Positions 11,090 to 29,103 are shown, counted from the first letter of the stretch. The stretch is 39,328 nt of DNA from Burkholderiales bacterium (GCA_036374055.1 DASUUN010000078.1:1-39328), one strand, 5' to 3'. Notes: generated by a model from the sequence alone, not told the origin. Translations and numbers: made by a program.

Positions 11090-11106
11090 CTTAAGGGAGC
11101 CTTAAC
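11090..11106 (-). promoter_or_regulatory. PmrA/QseB-type direct-repeat box CTTAAG-GGAGC-CTTAAC
   Basis: Two hexamers 11 bp apart. The box overlaps the PRC-barrel gene's stop and lies 26 nt upstream of the substrate-binding protein ATG. TAAAAT lies 16 nt from the proximal half-site. Confidence 0.55.
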
Positions 11107-11608
11107 GGCCCGTGTGCTGCACGCGAGGCTCGAGGCGAAGGTCCACGCGCAAGGTGCGCCTGGCGGCGTCTCGCGCGACGATCGCTGAGGCCGCGATTTC
11201 CAGCTTGCGTCCCGGAAGCAGCCAGTCGCGCGTCGCCGCGACCAGGCCGGCAACCGACCAGTCACCGTTGAGGAGCAGGTCATCGGCATGCCCGATGGGA
11301 CGCCCGCTCGCCTCGATGCGATAGCCCCACAGTGCCCGGCCGCTTACCAGCCGCGCGTGCTTGTCCGCGCTGATGCAGCGCCTGAGCTGCTCGCGTGTCA
11401 GGTCCACCCGCATCCCGGCCGACGGATCCAGCGCTACGCGCGCCGCCGGCACAAGTACCCGCCGCCCCGGAAACCGGTCGCCCTGGTCAATGGCCACGTA
11501 ATGCGGCGCGAGGGTGTCCTGTTCGAATAACACGTCGTTCAGCAGGCCGGCGGGACCGTCCCTTGCCGTGATGCAGCTGCCGCGCAGCGCGTTCAAGCGA
11601 TAAGCCAT
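11102..11608 (-). CDS. PRC-barrel domain protein (2 barrels, no signal peptide)
   Basis: Two PRC-barrel-like units: LRGSCITARDGPAGLLNDVLFEQDTLAPHYVAID and LWGYRIEASGRPIGHADDLLLNGDWSVAGLVA. Confidence 0.7.
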   Translation of the reverse strand: MAYRLNALRGSCITARDGPAGLLNDVLFEQDTLAPHYVAIDQGDRFPGRRVLVPAARVALDPSAGMRVDLTREQLRRCISADKHARLVSGRALWGYRIEASGRPIGHADDLLLNGDWSVAGLVAATRDWLLPGRKLEIAASAIVARDAARRTLRVDLRLEPRVQHTGR

Positions 11609-13731: not shown

Positions 13732-15150
13732 ATGAACTCAGCAGCAACCTTCAAGCGCCCGCTGATCGCGCTCGCCGTTGCCTCGGTACTGGCAGCGGGC
13801 TGCAGCGAAGTGACGCTTCCCGGCGTGCGCAATGCCAATGCGGTGGCCGTACAGCCCTTCGCCGCACAAGCAGCGGCGAGCGCCCTTCCAGACTTCGCCT
13901 CGCTGGTCGAGCAGCACGGGCCGGCGGTAGTGAAGATCGAGGTGAGCAAGGTGCAGCGCGCCTCGCTGCCCGAGCAGGCGCCGCCCCAGCTCGACGAATT
14001 CTTCCGGCACTTCGGCGTTCCGCGGCCCGAGGGCCGCCTCATGCCGAACCCCGCGCCCGCGCAGGGCGTGGGCTCGGGCTTCGTCGTCAGCCCGGACGGC
14101 ACGATCCTCACCAATGCGCACGTGGTCGACGGCGCCGGCGAAGTGACCGTGAAGCTGTCGGACAAGCGCGAATTCACGGCCAAGGTGGTCGGCGTGGATC
14201 GCATGACCGACGTCGCGGTCGTCAAGGTCGAAGCATCCGGCCTTCCGACCGTGAAGATCGGCGACCCGGCGAAGACGCGGGTCGGCGAATGGGTGGCGGC
14301 GATCGGCTCGCCGTTCGGCATGGACCACTCCGTCACCTCGGGCATCGTGTCGGCCAAGTCGCGCAACCTGCCGAACGAGCGCCTCGTGCCGTTCCTCCAG
14401 ACCGACGTCGCGGTGAACCCGGGCAACTCCGGCGGGCCGCTCTTCAACATGGCGGGCGAAGTGATCGGCATCAACTCGCAGATCTACAGCACCACGGGCG
14501 GCTACATGGGGATGTCGTTCGCCATCCCGATCGACGTGGCGATGAAGGTCAAGGAGCAGCTCGTGGCGCACGGCAAGGTGACGCGCGGGCGCATCGGCGT
14601 GACCGTCCAGCAAGTGACCCCGGCGCTCGCGCAGTCGTTCGGCCTGGACAAGCCGCGCGGCGCGCTCGTTTCGGGCATCGAGCCCGGCGGTCCGGCCGCT
14701 GACGGCGGCCTGCAGGCGGGCGACGTGGTCGTGGCCTTCAACGGCAAGCCGATCGCGAGCTCCGGCGAGCTGCCGGCGCTGGTGGCGGAGACCAAGCCCG
14801 GCGAGACCGTAAAGGTGGGCGTCGTGCGCAAGGGCGCCGAGCGGCAGATGCAGCTCACCGTAGGCGAAATGCCTTCGGAGCGCACCAGCGTCGCGGGCGC
14901 GCCGGCCCTGCAGCAGGGCAAGCTCGGCGTGTCCGTGCGGCCCGGCGACAAGGGGCTGGAGATCGAGCAGGCCGAGGGGCCGGCGGCCAAGGCCGGCCTG
15001 CGCGCCGGCGACATCATCGTCGGTGTCAACGGCACCCCGGTGCGCTCCATCGACGAGCTGCGAAACGCGGTAGAGGGCGCGGGCGGCAACCTGGCCATCC
15101 TCGTGCAGCGCGGCAACGCGCGCCTTTACGTTCCGGTGCAGATCGGCTAG
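13732..15150 (+). CDS. DegQ/MucD-family periplasmic serine endoprotease (HtrA), 2 PDZ domains
   Basis: Signal peptide. Catalytic motifs TNAHVV, DVAVVKV, GNSGGPL. Two PDZ segments (GALVSGIEPGGPAADGGLQAGDVV and GLRAGDIIVGVNG). Confidence 0.9.
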   Translation: MNSAATFKRPLIALAVASVLAAGCSEVTLPGVRNANAVAVQPFAAQAAASALPDFASLVEQHGPAVVKIEVSKVQRASLPEQAPPQLDEFFRHFGVPRPEGRLMPNPAPAQGVGSGFVVSPDGTILTNAHVVDGAGEVTVKLSDKREFTAKVVGVDRMTDVAVVKVEASGLPTVKIGDPAKTRVGEWVAAIGSPFGMDHSVTSGIVSAKSRNLPNERLVPFLQTDVAVNPGNSGGPLFNMAGEVIGINSQIYSTTGGYMGMSFAIPIDVAMKVKEQLVAHGKVTRGRIGVTVQQVTPALAQSFGLDKPRGALVSGIEPGGPAADGGLQAGDVVVAFNGKPIASSGELPALVAETKPGETVKVGVVRKGAERQMQLTVGEMPSERTSVAGAPALQQGKLGVSVRPGDKGLEIEQAEGPAAKAGLRAGDIIVGVNGTPVRSIDELRNAVEGAGGNLAILVQRGNARLYVPVQIG

Positions 15151-16003: not shown

Positions 16004-16486
16004 TCAACGCTTCTGGCTGGTGCGCAGGTCCGGCGGCAGCTGCACCATCGCCTGCTGGGTGTCGAACAGCGCCTGGTTCGCCTGCTGCATGGCTTCGTTG
16101 CGCCGCGGTCCGGCAGGCTGCTTCGCCATCGCCTGCACTGCATCGCGCAGGCGCTGCGCCGCCTCCTGCAGTCGCTCCATCGACTTCGTGTAATTGGGCT
16201 CGGTGCCCGCCCCCATGCGCAGCTCCGGCGGCAGGTCGATCATGGCGCGCTGCGTCTCCACGATGGCTTCGCGGGCTTCGTCTGCTGCGGCATTGCGCCG
16301 CTCACCGGCGGGCTGCTGCGCCATCGCCTGCACCGCCTCACGCAGCTTCTGCGCCGCCTGCTGCAGGCGTACCATCGACTCGCCGTAGTTGGTGGGCGCA
16401 GTTGCGCCGCTGCTTTGCGCGGATGCCGCTCCTGCGCCGCCCAGGAAAGCAGCCGCCACCACGCTAACCAAGAATTTGCGATCCAT
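16004..16486 (-). CDS. periplasmic all-helical protein with two ~58-aa tandem repeats (unknown family)
   Basis: GAGGAGG RBS and signal peptide MDRKFLVSVVAAAFLGGAGAASA. The repeats are NYGESMVRLQQAAQKLREAVQAMAQQPAG...LPPELR and NYTKSMERLQEAAQRLRDAVQAMAKQPAG...LPPDLR. Confidence 0.7.
   Translation of the reverse strand: MDRKFLVSVVAAAFLGGAGAASAQSSGATAPTNYGESMVRLQQAAQKLREAVQAMAQQPAGERRNAAADEAREAIVETQRAMIDLPPELRMGAGTEPNYTKSMERLQEAAQRLRDAVQAMAKQPAGPRRNEAMQQANQALFDTQQAMVQLPPDLRTSQKR
16025..16390 (-). repeat. in-frame tandem duplication (2 x ~174 nt, period 192 nt) inside gene 16004..16486
   Basis: Repeat units at about 16217-16390 and 16025-16198 encode clearly related peptide units. Confidence 0.7.
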
Positions 16487-16516
16487 AGGACCTCCTCGTG
16501 TAAATGGCGCCTGCCG

Positions 16517-16532
16517 TGCAAAGGCCGTTCCG
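16517..16532 (-). promoter_or_regulatory. sigma-54-type promoter CGGAACGGCCTTTGCA for gene 16486(-)
   Basis: GG-N10-GC spacing with a perfect TTGCA -12 element. The predicted TSS is near 16506, giving a 20-nt leader with GAGGAGG. Confidence 0.55.
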
Positions 16533-16547
16533 GGCACGGCCGTTGCA
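16532..16547 (+). promoter_or_regulatory. sigma-54-type promoter GGGCACGGCCGTTGCA for the PRC-barrel operon
   Basis: Matches GGCACG-N4-TTGCA. Its -24 element shares G16532 with the divergent promoter. GTG 16559 lies exactly 13 nt after the -12 C. Confidence 0.65.
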
Positions 16548-16558
16548 CCGGGGACGGC

Positions 16559-17773
16559 GTGCAGCCCGTGAACAACTTTCTCTTTGCATCTTTTCGCGCC
16601 GGCGCGCTTATCGGGACGCTGCTGCTGGCGTGCGGCGCGCAGGCGGCGCCGGTAAGCGCAGGCGCGCTGCTGGGTGCCCGCGTGGCCGACGCTGAAGGCG
16701 CGCAGCTCGGGACGATTCACGACCTTGCAGTGGACGTCGCTGCCGGTTACGTGCGCTATGCGATCGTCGAAAAAGCCGAGACCAGCCGTAACCAGCGCGA
16801 AGTGCGCGCCGCACCGATCACCGCGCTGCGGCCCGGGCTTGCGCGCGGCCAGCTGGTGCTGGAGTCGCGCACTCAGGTTCCGCCGGGCAATGCCGGCGGC
16901 TACCTCATGCGGGCCAAAGCGATCCTCGGCAGGCCGATCGATCATCCGACCGGCGCCGATTACGGAACCATCCGCGACGTCTTCTTCGAGCTGGAAAGCG
17001 GGCGCGTGCTGCACGCCGAGGTTTCCCTGGAGGCGGCAGCGAACGGCGTAAAGCGCAAGGTGCCATTCGATGCGCTGCGTTTTCCGCCGGCCCAGCCCAA
17101 CGCCATCCTGACGCTCGGGTCCGCCACCCTGCCGGCAAGCCAGCTGATCGGCATGGAGGTGCGCAACCGGGATGCCGGCACCAAAGGCCGCATCGACGAG
17201 CTGGTGGTGGACTTGCATAACAGCCGCGTGCACTACGTCGTGCTCGACATGGAGCACCGGTTGATCACCGAGCCCCTCGAGCGACTATCGTTTACGCCGG
17301 GCAGGCAATACGCCGTATTGCCGAACGCGACCCGCGGCATCGCAGAGCCGCGCGCCGGAATGACGCTGGCACGCGCGAGCGAGCTGATCGGCTGGGAGTT
17401 CGAGAACGAGCCCGGCGTCGACTTGGGCGTCATCAGCGATCTTTCCATCGACCCGCAAACCGGCAGGGTTTCGCACGCGCTCGTGCGGCTGCACGAGGCG
17501 CCGGGCCGTATGCAGCGGCTCGAGCTCAGCCGATTTTCGATGTCGCCGTGGCGCGAGAACCTGGTGCTCGCCGAGCCCTCCGCCGCCGCCGGCGCCACCA
17601 CACCCGCCGGCGGCGTCAATCTCTTCGAGCGGCTCGATCGCGACGGCAATGGTTTTATCGAGGATTCCGAGCTCGATAGCGGTATCGTCGGCCGCAGAAA
17701 CTGGATCGCCGTCGACCTCGATCGCGATGACCGGATCAGTCGGGACGAGTTCACCGCCATGCGCACGCAATGA
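16559..17773 (+). CDS. secreted protein with four PRC-barrel domains and a C-terminal EF-hand pair
   Basis: Signal peptide FRAGALIGTLLLACGAQA. Four units of type LLGARVADAEGAQLGTIHDLAVDVAAGYVRYAIV. EF loops DRDGNGFIEDSE and DLDRDDRISRDE. GTG 16559 chosen, with GTG 16568 as the alternative. Confidence 0.75.
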   Translation: MQPVNNFLFASFRAGALIGTLLLACGAQAAPVSAGALLGARVADAEGAQLGTIHDLAVDVAAGYVRYAIVEKAETSRNQREVRAAPITALRPGLARGQLVLESRTQVPPGNAGGYLMRAKAILGRPIDHPTGADYGTIRDVFFELESGRVLHAEVSLEAAANGVKRKVPFDALRFPPAQPNAILTLGSATLPASQLIGMEVRNRDAGTKGRIDELVVDLHNSRVHYVVLDMEHRLITEPLERLSFTPGRQYAVLPNATRGIAEPRAGMTLARASELIGWEFENEPGVDLGVISDLSIDPQTGRVSHALVRLHEAPGRMQRLELSRFSMSPWRENLVLAEPSAAAGATTPAGGVNLFERLDRDGNGFIEDSELDSGIVGRRNWIAVDLDRDDRISRDEFTAMRTQ

Positions 17774-18321
17774 AGCTGATCCTCGTGCTCCTGGCGGGTG
17801 CCCTGCTCGCTCCCGCCGCGCCCTTGCACGCCGACAACAAGGCGCAGGTACGCGCAACGGAGCTTTTCGGCAGCCGGCTCATAGACAAGGGTGGCGAGGC
17901 GCTCGGCGAAATCGGCGACCTGGTGTTCGACGCGCGCAACGGGGCGCTGCGCTCGGTGGTGGTCGACGGCGTTGCTTTGCCGGTGAGCCGGCTGCTGCCC
18001 GAGGCGGGCGGCCGGCGCTACATCCTGACGGAGCCCGACGACACCCGCCCGACCGCCTTTGCCGAGCCCCGCTGGCCTTCGATGCGCGCAAGCCGCCTGG
18101 TCAGCCATGAGGTAGTCGACCGCCTGCACCGCGATTTCGGCGAGATTCGGGACGTCCTGGTGGATCTCGACCGACGCCGGGTGGGCGGAGTGATCATCGA
18201 TCGCAGAGACGACTGGCAGGCCGGACAGGCGCTGGTCACCGTCCCTGTCGAGGCGCTGTCGCTGCCGCGCGATCTGGGCGACAAGGTGGCGCTCAACTAC
18301 TCCCGCGAGCGCCTCGAATAG
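17770..18321 (+). CDS. secreted PRC-barrel protein (2 barrels)
   Basis: ATGA start/stop overlap with the upstream gene. Signal peptide MKLILVLLAGALLAPAAPLHA. Barrel units LFGSRLIDKGGEALGEIGDLVFDARNGALRSVVV and LVSHEVVDRLHRDFGEIRDVLVDLDRRRVGGVII. Confidence 0.75.
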   Translation: MKLILVLLAGALLAPAAPLHADNKAQVRATELFGSRLIDKGGEALGEIGDLVFDARNGALRSVVVDGVALPVSRLLPEAGGRRYILTEPDDTRPTAFAEPRWPSMRASRLVSHEVVDRLHRDFGEIRDVLVDLDRRRVGGVIIDRRDDWQAGQALVTVPVEALSLPRDLGDKVALNYSRERLE

Positions 18322-18322
18322 C

Positions 18323-18338
18323 GGGCCCGCCGATTGCA
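18323..18338 (+). promoter_or_regulatory. sigma-54-like element GGGCCCGCCGATTGCA upstream of DegQ-2 (internal promoter candidate)
   Basis: GG-N10-GC spacing with a perfect TTGCA -12 element; the -24 lacks the A of GGCAC. The predicted TSS is near 18349, 26 nt before ATG 18375. Confidence 0.4.
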
Positions 18339-18374
18339 TCGAGCTTCTCCGTCCCGATCCCCAAAGGCCCCGCC

Positions 18375-19811
18375 ATGAAAGTCCTCGCCTTCGTTCTAGC
18401 GGCCGTGCTGGCCGCGCCCGCCGCCGCCCAGGCTCAATCCCCGTCACAGGGCGCCACCGCGCCAACCCGGGAGGCCAACCTTCCGGATTTCACCGCGCTC
18501 GTGAAAAAGCAGGGACCGGCGGTCGTCAACGTAATCACTACACGCGCCGCTGCCCAAGGCGGGCCGGCGGGGCTGTCGCCCGATGATCCGTTCTACGAGT
18601 TCTTCCGCCGGTTCATGCCCGAAATGCCGGAAGGCGGGCCGCCGGGGCAGGGCGAAGGGCCGGGCGGCCAGGGCATCGGCTCGGGGTTCATCATCAGCCC
18701 GGACGGCTACATCCTCACCAACGCGCACGTCGTGGCCGGTTCGAAGGAAGTGACGGTGCGCATGGCCGACGCCAAGCGCGAGTTCAAGGCGCAAGTGGTG
18801 GGCACGGACGAGCGCACCGACGTGGCGCTGCTCAAGGTGGATCAGGACAACCTGCCGGTGGTGAAGCTCGGCAAGTCCAGCACGCTGGAGCCTGGCCAAT
18901 GGGTCGCGGCCATCGGCTCGCCGTTCGGATTCGCTAACACCATCACGGCCGGCATCGTCAGCGCCACCGAGCGCGCGCTGCCCGCGGAGACCTACCTGCC
19001 GTTCATCCAGACCGACGTGGCCGTGAATCCCGGCAACTCCGGAGGGCCGCTGCTCAACCTCGACGGCGAAGTGGTCGGCATCAACTCCATGATCTACAGC
19101 CGCACCGGCGGCTACATGGGCGTGTCCTTCGCCATCCCCATCGAAGAGGCGCTCGATGTCTCCAAGCAGCTGCGCGAGCACGGCAAGGTGACGCGCGGCC
19201 GCCTGGGCATCGGCATCCAGCCGGTCACCAAGGAGCTGGCGCAGTCCTTCAAGCTGGATTCCGCCAATGGCGTGGTGGTGGTGCAGGTCGAGCCGGGCAG
19301 CCCGGCGGAAAAGGCCGGCCTGCAAGTCGGCGACGTGATTCTCAGCTACAACGGCAAGACGATCGAAGAAGGCAACATGCTGCCGCGCCTGGTGGGCAAC
19401 ACCAAGCCCGGCCAGCAGGCGAAGCTCGAGATCTGGCGCAAAGGCGAACGCCAGACCGTGACCACGACGGTCGGCGAGCTCCAGCCACGGGCGGAACAAG
19501 CGGCGGCCGGCAAGGCACCCTCGGACGACAAGCCCAGCAAGCTCGGCCTTTCCGTGCGCGAGCTCGCGCCGGACGAGCGCAAGAAGCTCGGGGTCGAGTT
19601 CGGCGTGGTCGTCACCGACATCGCCCAGGGCGCCGCCGCGGCGCGCACGCCGATCCGGCGCGGCGACGTCATCGTGGCGGTCAACCAGGCGCGCTTCAAG
19701 AGCATCGAGGAGTTCAACAAGCTGATCGAGGCGCAGAAGAAAGGCGAGACCGTGGCGCTGCTCGTGCGTCGTGGCGAGGGTGCCATCTATGTCCCCATGG
19801 AAGTGGGGTAG
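18375..19811 (+). CDS. DegQ/MucD-family periplasmic serine endoprotease (HtrA), second copy
   Basis: Signal peptide MKVLAFVLAAVLAAPAAAQA. Catalytic motifs TNAHVV, DVALLKV and GNSGGPL. Two PDZ segments. By eye roughly 60% identical to the 13732 copy across the protease core. Confidence 0.9.
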   Translation: MKVLAFVLAAVLAAPAAAQAQSPSQGATAPTREANLPDFTALVKKQGPAVVNVITTRAAAQGGPAGLSPDDPFYEFFRRFMPEMPEGGPPGQGEGPGGQGIGSGFIISPDGYILTNAHVVAGSKEVTVRMADAKREFKAQVVGTDERTDVALLKVDQDNLPVVKLGKSSTLEPGQWVAAIGSPFGFANTITAGIVSATERALPAETYLPFIQTDVAVNPGNSGGPLLNLDGEVVGINSMIYSRTGGYMGVSFAIPIEEALDVSKQLREHGKVTRGRLGIGIQPVTKELAQSFKLDSANGVVVVQVEPGSPAEKAGLQVGDVILSYNGKTIEEGNMLPRLVGNTKPGQQAKLEIWRKGERQTVTTTVGELQPRAEQAAAGKAPSDDKPSKLGLSVRELAPDERKKLGVEFGVVVTDIAQGAAAARTPIRRGDVIVAVNQARFKSIEEFNKLIEAQKKGETVALLVRRGEGAIYVPMEVG

Positions 19812-20415
19812 CGTGCTGGCGGCGCTCCTCGCGCCGCCCATCGCGCTCGCCGCCGGGTGGATCCGGATGCCGGCGAGCGAGCTGCTCGGCAAGCCGGTGA
19901 TCGACATGCAAGGCGACCGGCTCGGCCGGGTACAGGACCTCGTGGTTGACGTGCGCAATTCGCGGGTGAGCTACGCGATCGTAGGCTTCAACGGCTGGGG
20001 GACGTTGGGCGAAGAGCTGTTCCCCGTCCCGCTGAAATCGCTGGCGCCCGAGCCGGGCGGCTCGCGCGTGACGCTGCAGGTGGCTCCACGCACGCTGCGC
20101 GATGGCGCCTCGATCGACGCGCAAAGCGAGCCGCGGCTGCCGGCCGATGCGCCCCTCAAGCAACACGTACGCGCGAGCGAGCTCGTTGGCCGCCGCGTCA
20201 GCGACCGCACCGGCACGCATGCCGGCGAGATCGAGGAGGCGGTGATCGACATGAACAGCGGGCTCGTGCTTTTCCTCCTGTTCGACTACGACGAGGCCTG
20301 GGGGCTCGATCAGCCGGCGCTGCGCATGGCGCCGCAGGCCTTCAGCTTCCCGGCCGATGGCGGCCCTGCCGTCGTCAACGTGGCGCGCGAGCGCCTTGAA
20401 GACCCCGGTCGCTAG
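19789..20415 (+). CDS. secreted PRC-barrel protein (2 barrels)
   Basis: ATG 19789 overlaps the DegQ-2 3' end by 23 nt. Signal-like MSPWKWGSVLAALLAPPIALAAG. Barrel units LLGKPVIDMQGDRLGRVQDLVVDVRNSRVSYAIV and LVGRRVSDRTGTHAGEIEEAVIDMNSGLVLFLLF. Confidence 0.7.
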   Translation: MSPWKWGSVLAALLAPPIALAAGWIRMPASELLGKPVIDMQGDRLGRVQDLVVDVRNSRVSYAIVGFNGWGTLGEELFPVPLKSLAPEPGGSRVTLQVAPRTLRDGASIDAQSEPRLPADAPLKQHVRASELVGRRVSDRTGTHAGEIEEAVIDMNSGLVLFLLFDYDEAWGLDQPALRMAPQAFSFPADGGPAVVNVARERLEDPGR

Positions 20416-20577
20416 CGTCGCCGCCGCTCGTATCGCCGCCGGCGAGCGGCGGCATGCCACGAAGCGGGCGTAGAACACCGCGATGAGCTGAAAGCCGAAC
20501 AGCGCCTGGATGCCCGGCAGCACCATGCGGCACTCTTCCAGGAGATGACTGGTGGCGGCATCGATCGCCGACCGCAC
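20416..20577 (-). pseudogene. possible 5' remnant of a DUF6328-type membrane protein gene
   Basis: The translation SHLLEECRMVLPGIQALFGFQLIAVFYARF resembles the conserved first TM region of DUF6328 proteins as I recall it. The rest of the family is missing, and the frame runs on as antisense of the PRC gene. Confidence 0.3.
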
Positions 20578-20613
20578 CGCAACTCCCGTGCCGGCCGCGG
20601 CCGCGGCTCCAAG

Positions 20614-20629
20614 GGGAACGCAGCTTGCG
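20614..20629 (+). promoter_or_regulatory. sigma-54-type element GGGAACGCAGCTTGCG upstream of small ORF 20655
   Basis: GG-N10-GC spacing with TTGC. The predicted TSS is near 20640, followed by GGAGGA (20643-20648) and GTG 20655. Confidence 0.45.
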
Positions 20630-20654
20630 GTGTGCCGTATTTGGAGGAAGCGTC

Positions 20655-20882
20655 GTGCTGCGATTGCGCTCATTAGGACCCGGCGATCTTTTCATCGTCC
20701 CGGAGGGCGAGCAGGGATGCTGGGCGAGCTTTTTCTCCGGCAAGGAATACCGCCCGCCCGGGGTGCAGTTCACCGGGCGCACGTATATCGAGTCCTTCGA
20801 GCCGAAGGCTCAGGCGGTGGTGGAGCCGCCGCTGCAGCAGGTGGCGGCGCGCGGTTCCTCAAGCAGGCCGAAAGCCTGGTGA
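20655..20882 (+). CDS. small hypothetical protein (75 aa) with cupin-like strand motif
   Basis: GTG start 6 nt after GGAGGA. LGPGDLFIVPEGEQGCW resembles the C-terminal strands of small cupins. GC3 is only moderately high. Confidence 0.4.
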   Translation: MLRLRSLGPGDLFIVPEGEQGCWASFFSGKEYRPPGVQFTGRTYIESFEPKAQAVVEPPLQQVAARGSSSRPKAW

Positions 20883-20952
20883 ACCGGCGATCGGCTTCCA
20901 TCACGAGGTGCGGTCCTTCAAGCTGTTCTGCGCAGAAAAGGAGTAGCGAATC

Positions 20953-23305: not shown

Positions 23306-23893
23306 ATGAATATGCGCCTTACCGTATCCATTCTGCCTGCAGCAGTCGCGCTCGCCCTGGCCGGTCCGCTTCACGCCGCCGACGTGCCGAACTTCAATCA
23401 GATGGACAAGAACAACGACGGCCAGCTTACGAAAAGCGAGGCTCAGGCAAACCCGAAGCTTGCCGACCAGTTCAGCCAGGTCGACGACGACAACAACGGC
23501 ACGTTAAGCCGCCCCGAGTATCTCGCCATCATGGGGCGCCAGGACCTGCACAACCTGCGCGAAAATCTCGCCGAGTTCCTCGATCCCGAGGGCAAGCCGC
23601 CGCTTGCCGCCAGCGGCGAGCAGGGCAAGCAGGAGCCGACGAAAGCCGTAAGCGAGCAGCTGGTGCGCAACGTGCAGCAGACGCTTTCCGACAAGGGCAT
23701 CGACGCCGGCCCGGTGGACGGCATCTGGGGTGCGCGCACCAGCTCCGGCGTGCGCCAGTTCCAGAAGGCCCAGGGCATGCAGCCCACCGGCCAGCTCAAC
23801 GCGAAGACGCTTAGCGCGCTTGGCATCGCCGAGGGCTCGGCCTCAGCTGGACAAAGCGGCGCGCCCGCTGAAGAAAGCGGCAAGCAGCGCTGA
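23306..23893 (+). CDS. secreted EF-hand pair protein fused to a peptidoglycan-binding (PG_binding_1-like) domain
   Basis: Signal peptide MNMRLTVSILPAAVALALAGPLHA. EF loops DKNNDGQLTKSE and DDDNNGTLSRPE. The C-terminal VQQTLSDKGIDAGPVDGIWGARTSSGVRQFQKAQGMQPTGQLNAKT is a typical PG-binding repeat. Confidence 0.8.
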   Translation: MNMRLTVSILPAAVALALAGPLHAADVPNFNQMDKNNDGQLTKSEAQANPKLADQFSQVDDDNNGTLSRPEYLAIMGRQDLHNLRENLAEFLDPEGKPPLAASGEQGKQEPTKAVSEQLVRNVQQTLSDKGIDAGPVDGIWGARTSSGVRQFQKAQGMQPTGQLNAKTLSALGIAEGSASAGQSGAPAEESGKQR

Positions 23894-27936: not shown

Positions 27937-29103
27937 ATGAAATCGCTTAAACCTCTATTGCTGAGCTTCTCGCTGCTCGCCTTCACCGGCGCGTACGCGC
28001 AGGACGCAAAGAAGGAAAAGGACCAGACGCAGGCAAAACCTGCCATGTCCCAGGCCGATTCGAAGGATGACAAGGCCTCCGGCAGCGCAGCGAAGCAGTC
28101 GCAGCAAAGCTCCGGCGCTTCGGCCGGCGCGAGCAGCTCCACCAGCGGCGCCGGGATGGCGGGCGGGATGAGCGTCAAGAACCTGCGCGGCATGGACGTG
28201 GTGGACTCGCAGGGCAAGGACCTCGGCGAGATCGACGAGGTGATGCTCGACATGGCCGACGGCCGCGTGCATTCCGTGGTGCTCGGCTTCGGCGGTTTTC
28301 TCGGCCTGGGCGAGAAGCACTTCGCCTTCCTGGTAAGCGACCTGCAGCCCGCCAAGGAAAAGAACAAGCTGCAGCTCAACGTCGACAAGGAGAAGCTGAA
28401 GGACCGCGAAGGCTTCGCCAAGGGCAAGTACCCGGCCCCCGACGATGATTACTGGGCGAAAGTCGGCCAGGGCGACAAGTCGGGCGCGGCCGCCGGGGCG
28501 ACCGGCCAGAAGGCGAGCGTCATGCGCGCGAGCAAGGTCATCGGCCAGGACGTCCAGGACAAGAGCGGCCAGGATGTCGGCGAGGTGAAGGACATCGTGC
28601 TCAGCTCGGACCGTACGCGCATCCAGCACGTCGTGCTCGACGTGAAAGGCGCCGGCGAAGCCACGCTCCCGCCGAAGTCCCTGTCGATGGGCAAGGAAGG
28701 CGACAAGCTGGTCGTCGATATGTCGAGCGAGCAGCTGAAGAGCCAGGCGAAGCCCGCTGCCGGCGCGAGCAGCGGCGCGAGCACCACCCGTACGGTCCCG
28801 ATCGAGCGGGACAAGCAGTCCCAGGCCGATACCAAGCCTTCGGGCAGCGCCTCCGCCGGCGCCGGCAGCAGCTCGGCCGGGACGAGCGCGTCGAAGAAGG
28901 GCTTCGCCGAGCTCGACCGCGATAACGACGGCTCCCTGAGCCGGATGGAAGCCGCGGCCGACGCCAACGCCAAATCCAACTTCGAGTCGCTGGACAAGAA
29001 CAGCGACAAGAAGCTGTCACGCTCCGAGTACGAGGGTGGCCAGGGCGCCGCGGCCGGCGCGACGGGCTCGAAGCAAAGCGAGCAGAAGGATAAGTCGAAG
29101 TAA
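27937..29103 (+). CDS. secreted protein with two PRC-barrel domains, low-complexity linkers and a C-terminal EF-hand pair
   Basis: Signal peptide MKSLKPLLLSFSLLAFTGAYA. Barrel units LRGMDVVDSQGKDLGEIDEVMLDMADGRVHSVVL and VIGQDVQDKSGQDVGEVKDIVLSSDRTRIQHVVL. EF loops DRDNDGSLSRME and DKNSDKKLSRSE. Confidence 0.8.
   Translation: MKSLKPLLLSFSLLAFTGAYAQDAKKEKDQTQAKPAMSQADSKDDKASGSAAKQSQQSSGASAGASSSTSGAGMAGGMSVKNLRGMDVVDSQGKDLGEIDEVMLDMADGRVHSVVLGFGGFLGLGEKHFAFLVSDLQPAKEKNKLQLNVDKEKLKDREGFAKGKYPAPDDDYWAKVGQGDKSGAAAGATGQKASVMRASKVIGQDVQDKSGQDVGEVKDIVLSSDRTRIQHVVLDVKGAGEATLPPKSLSMGKEGDKLVVDMSSEQLKSQAKPAAGASSGASTTRTVPIERDKQSQADTKPSGSASAGAGSSSAGTSASKKGFAELDRDNDGSLSRMEAAADANAKSNFESLDKNSDKKLSRSEYEGGQGAAAGATGSKQSEQKDKSK

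Follow-up and report, generated by a model that had tools for sequence, protein, structure and literature searches.

A Do-family HtrA protease flanked by exported tandem PRC-barrel proteins: a candidate sigma-54-type co-regulated periplasmic stress module in soil Burkholderiales

A cluster of four plus-strand genes at positions 16559–20415 of a 39,328-nt contig (C78, the whole of which is termed the window) from an uncultured Burkholderiales bacterium encodes a periplasmic serine protease of the Do/HtrA family, termed HtrA2, and three exported proteins built from tandem PRC barrels, termed g1, g2 and g4. On balance, comparison of the sequences favours a lineage-specific periplasmic stress module under sigma-54-type co-regulation, in which HtrA2 and Ca2+-linked PRC-barrel proteins would be made together, and this reading is held with moderate confidence. 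The window belongs to a 4.29-Mb metagenome-assembled genome (MAG) of 484 contigs with a completeness of 87%, a contamination of 7.4% and a G+C content of ~69%, and the nearest HtrA2 loci among GTDB representative genomes lie in MAGs of uncultured soil ‘Burkholderiales bacterium’. The possibility that C78 is a binning contaminant was rejected because its T2SSE ATPase, MFS and HtrA2 genes are syntenic with those of related Burkholderiales MAGs at 61–81% identity. An Rfam scan of the window returned no matches.

The four open reading frames (ORFs) fill the interval (Table 1). A reading made from the window alone (the sequence-only reading) had described four tightly packed same-strand genes in the order PRCx4-EF, PRCx2, HtrA and PRCx2, and the ORFs, the Pfam matches and a custom PRC hidden Markov model (HMM), built from the Pfam PRC matches of the source genome, agree with that description. 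The junctions were also as it had given them. The TGA stop of g1 (17771–17773) overlaps the ATG of g2 (17770) within an ATGA at 17770–17773, a gap of 53 nt (18322–18374) precedes the protease gene, and the ATG of the last PRC gene (19789), itself preceded by a GAGGG Shine–Dalgarno sequence, lies 23 nt inside the 3’ end of HtrA2. The start of g4 (MSPWKW…) is kept in the homologues P0002 and P0004 (MCRWKW…), whereas for g1 the gene caller placed an alternative GTG start at 16568. As judged from sequence, N-termini resembling Sec signal peptides are present in all four proteins, with putative cleavage contexts, in gene order, of AQA/AP, LHA/D, AQA/Q and LAA/G.

Table 1. Coordinates of the four-gene cluster and of associated features in the window
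Feature	Position	Strand	Description
ORF 11102–11608	11102–11608	−	Unmatched by Pfam or custom PRC HMM, no signal peptide
HtrA1	13732–15150		HtrA1-subfamily protease
Helical-repeat gene	16004–16489	−	Secreted ~160-aa protein with two helical repeats (…LQQAAQKLREAVQAMAQQPAG…), no Pfam family
Sigma-54-like −24/−12 element CGGAACGGCCTTTGCA	16517–16532	−	Faces divergent helical-repeat gene; pattern scan
Sigma-54-like −24/−12 element GGGCACGGCCGTTGCA	16532–16547	+	12–21 nt before g1 start; pattern scan
g1	16559–17773	+	Exported protein, four PRC barrels and C-terminal EF-hand pair; Pfam, custom HMM, AlphaFold2 (AF2), Foldseek
g2	17770–18321	+	Exported PRCx2; ATGA start overlap with g1 stop
Sigma-54-like −24/−12 element GGGCCCGCCGATTGCA	18323–18338	+	In g2–HtrA2 gap; pattern scan
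HtrA2	18375–19811	+	Do-family (DegP/DegQ-like) periplasmic serine protease, intact H-D-S triad, two PDZ domains
g4	19789–20415	+	Exported PRCx2; ATG inside HtrA2 3’ end
Decayed junction	20416–20952		537 nt, non-coding, between g4 and TPP-enzyme gene
Sigma-54-like element	20578–20593	−	In decayed junction, back-to-back with the next
Sigma-54-like element	20615–20628	+	In decayed junction

To judge from its conservation in independent contigs, the arrangement is more than a chance one. The order g1–g2–HtrA is found again in at least four further metagenomic lineages, in which the PRC proteins are 48–73% and the HtrA proteins 80–89% identical to those of the window; over the conserved loci L147, L148/149, L150–152 and partly L154, which holds a partial copy of the order, the separate ranges are 80–89% for HtrA2, 48–54% for g1 and 52–73% for g2. 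In L147, from a farmland metagenome, a minus-strand helical-repeat gene is followed by g1 (52%), g2, HtrA2 (89%) and a TPP-enzyme gene, with no g4, and the g2 orthologue (L147:1643–2223) carries a frameshift that leaves two pieces of 139 and 54 aa, the result of either assembly error or decay. L148/L149 carry a minus-strand helical-repeat gene, a BON gene, g1 (54%), g2 (73%) and an HtrA2 (80%) cut at the contig end, while L150–L152 carry a minus-strand crystallin gene, a PRC gene, a minus-strand helical-repeat gene, g1 (48%), g2 (60%) and HtrA2 (82–89%). The 4-nt overlap of g1 and g2 is kept in L147, L148/149 and L150/151, and the gap before HtrA2 measures ~50–66 nt in the conserved loci. The HtrA–g4 junction recurs with the same 23-nt overlap in the P0002 JGI contig, where the g4 orthologue is 62% identical and is followed, as in the window, by TPP-enzyme, EF-hand/PG_binding_1 and MR_MLE genes.

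Two features at the borders of the cluster were also observed. The helical-repeat gene is divergent from g1 in all conserved loci, at 47–81% identity. Downstream of g4, the decayed junction corresponds to only 11 nt in the orthologous contig, and besides its pair of back-to-back sigma-54-like elements it seems to contain no more than the N-terminal portion of an ORF for a membrane protein on the minus strand.

The promoter-like elements are conserved along with the genes. Elements equivalent to the one before g1 lie upstream of g1, or of the BON gene and g1, in L147, L148 and L150/151, and L147, L148 and L150 have the back-to-back counterparts as well. Alignment of the g2–HtrA2 gap from five lineages left as conserved parts a GGsCCG-N4-(A/C)TTGCAT block and a GGAGG Shine–Dalgarno sequence; the sigma-54-like element is the best-conserved block of this gap and is followed in the window by an AAAGG/GGAGG Shine–Dalgarno sequence. 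The exact GG-N10-GC spacing is held in five lineages for the HtrA2 element and in four for the g1 element. Where no PRC gene lies upstream of the HtrA2 orthologue (L023, L024, L029, L031, L033 and L035), the GG-N10-GC/TTGCA element GGCGCGAAGCTTGCAG stands before the ATG, and the orthologue in L022 carries the variant GGAACCGATCTTGC, the distance from the end of the element to the HtrA2 ATG being ~13–14 nt in the six loci and ~34 nt in L022. Were this element a sigma-54 promoter, the HtrA2 mRNA would be almost leaderless in those six MAGs; g1 in the window shows the same short geometry, with the element ending at 16547 and the start at 16559 or 16568.

In the window, the PRC genes at 27937, 35491 and 30789(−) have similar elements no more than 100 nt before them, as do those at C116:16771, C397:2338(−) and C397:5839(−) elsewhere in the source genome, and another precedes the EF-hand/PG-binding gene at 23306. 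The motif is 3.5–4.3 times as dense on C78 and C397, which are rich in PRC genes, as in the genome on average. The source genome encodes two full-length copies of rpoN (C194:1666–2982(−) and C374:11169–12542(−)), which may be paralogues or of which one may derive from a second strain, and ~8 bacterial enhancer-binding protein (bEBP) genes with a Sigma54_activat domain.

These elements bear on the transcription of the cluster, which the sequence-only reading had taken to be one operon. The common strand, the short or overlapping junctions and the lack of any plus-strand terminator-like site at the four-gene junctions agree with that claim; a sigma-70 promoter scan found none, and terminator-like sites were at background level. 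However, the g2–HtrA2 gap contains a conserved internal promoter-like element and the HtrA2 orthologues carry an element of their own with no PRC neighbour, and for this reason the cluster is probably not one simple operon. Given the elements before g1, in the gap and at the orthologues, transcription would most likely proceed as two tandem sigma-54-type units, g1–g2 and HtrA2–g4, with read-through from the first into the second possible since no terminator lies between them. Within the units, g1 and g2 may be translationally coupled through the ATGA, and HtrA2 and g4 through their 23-nt overlap.

As a Do/HtrA protease of MEROPS S1C, HtrA2 scores 497.9 bits against the model TIGR02037 (cut-off 416.2) and consists of a Trypsin_2 domain (residues 102–236) and the PDZ pair according to Pfam. 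The translation contains intact TNAHV, DVALLK and GNSGGP motifs, and the N-terminal MKVLAFVLAAVLAAPAAAQA, ending before a Q, reads as an export signal. The label DegQ-2, given to the protease when only the window had been read, had to be withdrawn; the protein falls below both the DegQ and the DegP equivalog cut-offs and passes only the Do-family one, which justifies the name Do-family HtrA and not DegQ. HtrA2 is orthologous to a conserved HtrA whose gene, in related MAGs, neighbours those of a T2SSE-type ATPase and an MFS protein. The source genome gave seven strong Do-family matches. Those of the HtrA1 subfamily, in the window (Table 1) and at C397:16935–18359(−) and C174:2801–4189, are paralogues of 74–86% identity, and each comes immediately after a gene pair for a response regulator of the OmpR type and a histidine kinase. 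HtrA2 stands apart as a paralogue 49–51% identical to the others in the genome.

The three neighbours of HtrA2 match Pfam PRC (PF05239) at 87.1 bits for g1, 47.9 for g2 and 69.6 for g4, well over the gathering threshold of 21.2, and the custom HMM resolves four barrels in g1 (16649–17590) and two each in g2 and g4, the latter two being paralogues of 34% identity over their full length. At its C-terminus g1 has two canonical EF-hand loops, DRDGNGFIEDSE and DLDRDDRISRDE, which are conserved in homologues, although the EF-hand_1 score of 25.2 bits falls just below the Pfam cut-off of 25.4 and AF2 confidence for this region is low. Homologues of g1 at 47–64% identity share its architecture. The AF2 model of g1 shows four beta-modules (mean pLDDT 71.5) with the EF-hand region poorly modelled, and that of g4 shows two packed barrels (pLDDT 80.7, pTM 0.76). 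With both models, the best PDB match in Foldseek was 8QZO, the archaeal tandem-PRC CdpB1/CdpB2, with a TM-score of 0.66–0.78 on the target over 162–180 columns, followed by the Rhodopseudomonas palustris PRC-barrel protein 3HTR and then by reaction-centre H subunits, all at probability 1.0; 3HTR was also matched by sequence in the PDB (E=2e-5). The C-termini of g1 (…AMRTQ), g2 (…SRERLE) and g4 (…LEDPGR), like those of their homologues, are charged or polar, and the idea that they serve as PDZ-activating ligands in the manner of outer-membrane-protein-like YxF or hydrophobic tails was dropped on that account.

Taken together, a conserved housekeeping HtrA2 would have gained secreted tandem PRC-barrel neighbours, with g4 on its downstream side and, on its upstream side, g2 and g1, which ends in an EF-hand pair. 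The sigma-54-type promoter elements of the cluster recur before many other PRC, EF-hand and crystallin genes of the source genome, so that all of these products are predicted to be made together and to meet in the periplasm. Exported Ca2+ or envelope proteins encoded in the window include a beta/gamma-crystallin with EF-hand, an EF-hand protein with PG_binding_1 and a DUF748/OmpA protein, and BON and DUF4398/OmpA proteins are encoded at the related loci L021 and L148. By analogy, the PRC proteins could serve as protein-binding scaffold or shield modules, perhaps hetero-oligomerizing as CdpB1 and CdpB2 do, and would act beside HtrA2 in envelope stress of a desiccation, osmotic or Ca2+-linked kind. 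While the genes, export signals, folds, order and motifs are as described above, sigma-54 dependence, co-expression and function are what we infer from them.

Several points weigh against this account. The PRC contigs yielded neither a bEBP gene nor an upstream activator site. The sigma-54 elements were recognized by their match to a consensus of TGGCAC/TTGCW-like boxes, and the −24 box of the HtrA2 element reads GGCCC or GGCGC and not GGCAC. The stress role of the PRC proteins is borrowed from distant and mostly non-secreted relatives. Finally, tight translational coupling such as joins HtrA2 to g4 and, in L153 described below, an M48 protease gene to a g2-like gene is seen more often with proteins that are physical partners than with genes that are simply co-regulated.

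Physical partnership is the likelier of the two alternatives. The PRC(+EF) and PRCx2 proteins might be dedicated partners of HtrA2, and of an M48 protease in other lineages, acting as Ca2+-responsive adaptors, regulators or preferred substrates, as NlpI does for Prc, LbcA for CtpA and, as a stress-signalling protein degraded by DegP, CpxP; on the sequence evidence we regard this as a tentative and somewhat unlikely explanation. The 23-nt overlap with a g4 that is itself conserved at 62% identity, the bracketing of the protease by the paralogues g2 and g4, and the retention of the g1–g2–HtrA order despite a PRC divergence of ~50% all point towards it, as does the ability of tandem PRC barrels to act as protein-binding modules (8QZO). 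Association with a protease also extends to a second HtrA subfamily, as the HtrA1-type copies on C174 and C397 each have a PRC gene immediately downstream. Among 36 same-genus genomes, ten (G009, G011, G012, G013, G015, G016, G024, G025, G030 and G031) combine a full-length HtrA gene with a PRC match at a distance of 54 nt to 5.1 kb, in several arrangements; this is far above the ~1% expected per gene, although through shared ancestry the events are not independent.

Outside the narrow clade the association did not hold up. The survey of the 80 HtrA2 homologues closest among GTDB representative genomes (49–73% identity) found a same-strand adjacent PRC gene in none. An opposite-strand secreted PRCx2 gene of another subfamily does lie upstream of HtrA2 in L022 (73%), L026 (65%) and the metagenomic L104 (70%), immediately divergent in the first and last of these and at a distance of ~1.7 kb in L026, and in L023, L024, L031, L033 and L035 a convergent PRCx2 gene is located 2–4 kb downstream. 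From an even sample of 401 Burkholderiales genomes, 98 of which contain g2/g4-family relatives, the 29 best PRC loci outside the source genome were examined for neighbours, and none had HtrA or M48 within 1.5 kb. Gene order, which had been named as something to check, is thus conserved in the narrow clade of at least four lineages but in none of these 80 homologues or 29 loci. A pattern scan of genome contigs with the g4-family alignment found no relatives; the corresponding metagenome scan returned mostly distant PRC proteins on short contigs, with HtrA within 5 kb only in L102 and L104.

Other observations also sit poorly with a dedicated partner. L147 lacks g4 and its g2 is frameshifted, most of the ~16–20 PRC genes of the source genome are not beside an HtrA, and none of its 12 M48 matches is on a PRC contig. 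The charged or polar PRC tails differ from the hydrophobic ones bound by the PDZ domains of HtrA, and a literature search combining PRC-barrel with HtrA or serine protease found no link. Co-regulation, by comparison, accounts for the layout without needing partnership.

Two further loci resemble parts of the window. The ORF at 11102–11608 has homologues of ~30% identity that are clear PRCx2 proteins and lie 2–4 kb downstream of HtrA2 in related MAGs. In L168 (G091:C93), from another Burkholderiales family, a PRCx2 gene is directly followed by a response regulator gene, 59% identical to that of the window, and a histidine kinase gene, a layout that echoes the arrangement of ORF 11102, response regulator and histidine kinase in the window.

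A variant of the partnership idea would make the PRC(+EF-hand)/PRCx2 pair a mobile cassette of Ca2+-responsive periplasmic adaptors or regulators, serving Do/HtrA here and an M48 lipoprotein protease elsewhere. In L153 (2921–5069), a PRCx2 gene and a gene for a small EF-hand protein precede a g2-like PRCx2 gene (51%) that overlaps by 4 nt the gene of a Peptidase_M48 lipoprotein with an intact HEVAH motif, and in the P0018 contig (JGI 3300043331 / 3300056388) a PRC-EF gene stands immediately downstream of an M48 gene. The occurrence of a related PRC/EF cassette beside an M48 protease in two contigs suggests that the partner idea should be kept alive, though we judge the cassette proposal itself, drawn from gene order, unlikely.

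The adjacency could instead be a by-product, in which an expanding PRC family spread into a rearrangement-prone HtrA2 region and the shared order reflects recent common descent. The expansion is large and lineage-specific, with 36 PF05239 domain matches in the source genome against 0–7, typically just RimM, in the 36 congeners. Contigs C174 and C282 resemble C397 in rearranged form, being 85–94% identical to parts of it at the nucleotide level, probably because the bin contains a pair of related strains or because segments were recently duplicated; this resemblance inflates the PRC and HtrA counts somewhat, with ~7 PRC matches perhaps strain duplicates (~29–36 domains). In related MAGs an MFS gene is found upstream of HtrA2 wherever the flank is readable, and because it directly precedes HtrA2 there, the ~9 kb between the two genes in the source genome, comprising the response regulator–histidine kinase–HtrA1 module, a crystallin gene, helical-repeat genes and g1–g2, appears inserted. 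The variable presence of g4 among close relatives and the decayed junction downstream of it are of the same tenor. Yet the order, the ATGA overlap and the ~50–66-nt gap persist in at least four lineages while g1 and g2 have diverged to ~50–70% identity, the genes share a promoter type, and different PRC subfamilies have been recruited beside two HtrA subfamilies. A by-product is accordingly improbable, and less likely than either co-regulation or partnership because the junctions are conserved.

The co-regulated stress module favoured here can be set beside several known systems. Secreted PRC barrels are widespread, as the survey of Burkholderiales illustrates, and are stress-induced in several phyla, while their molecular function is not known. 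The Anabaena PRC-barrel protein AvaKa is needed for dehydration tolerance (PMC9804601), and PRC-barrel genes belong to the EcfG regulon of Sphingomonas and the RpoE2 regulon of Sinorhizobium (PMC6599016, PMC6180224). Like those proteins, which belong to stress regulons under an alternative sigma factor or response regulator and likewise have no known molecular function, the proteins described here are PF05239 barrels without an enzymatic domain. Unlike them, they have signal peptides, tandem double or quadruple barrels and, in one case, a fused EF-hand pair; their promoters look sigma-54-type and not EcfG-type, and their genes flank HtrA; AvaK for its part carries DUF2382. The clade gives PRC barrels a concrete and conserved context, in which they occur with a periplasmic protease, with Ca2+ binders of the EF-hand and crystallin types and with sigma-54-type promoters, and from which testable hypotheses of Ca2+-dependent binding, scaffolding and protease adaptation follow.

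CdpB1 and CdpB2 are tandem PRC barrels that act as hetero-oligomerizing protein-binding modules in archaeal division (10.1101/2023.03.28.534520). They provide the best structural match (8QZO) and the same two-barrel architecture, and their paralogous pairs form hetero-complexes, as the PRC proteins of the cluster may. They differ in being cytoplasmic cell-division proteins tethered through SepF, at an identity of only 13–14%, and in having no secretion signal, EF-hand or protease link.

For the regulation of the cluster, the nearest comparison is ZraP/ZraSR of Escherichia coli, where small periplasmic stress proteins are expressed from divergent or back-to-back promoters of the sigma-54 type, and for its composition DegP with CpxP in the Cpx response, in which a periplasmic HtrA-family protease is co-regulated with a non-enzymatic periplasmic protein. 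The cluster resembles these in its back-to-back sigma-54-type elements and in combining HtrA with non-enzymatic periplasmic proteins, but no ZraP-, CpxP- or Spy-family protein and no adjacent bEBP or sensor was recognized. To our knowledge HtrA is not sigma-54-dependent in model organisms. The elements at HtrA2 point to possible sigma-54 control of the principal HtrA protease in some soil Burkholderiales, in contrast to the textbook sigma-E/Cpx arrangement.

Prc–NlpI in E. coli and CtpA–LbcA in Pseudomonas are precedents for an envelope protease that has a non-catalytic periplasmic protein as its dedicated partner, and the partnership alternative would share this principle. Those systems differ in that the proteases are of the S41 family, the adaptors are TPR lipoproteins and the genes usually do not overlap; we know of no dedicated partner of this kind for Do/HtrA proteases. 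If the PRC proteins were partners of HtrA2, this would be a novel way of regulating HtrA, in addition to peptide gating through the PDZ domains, and if the cassette proposal held, they would be the first dedicated partner proteins described for the HtrA family and reveal the first molecular function for secreted PRC barrels. Set against all of these systems, the cluster is best read as an envelope-stress regulon around HtrA that includes a previously undescribed class of accessory proteins.

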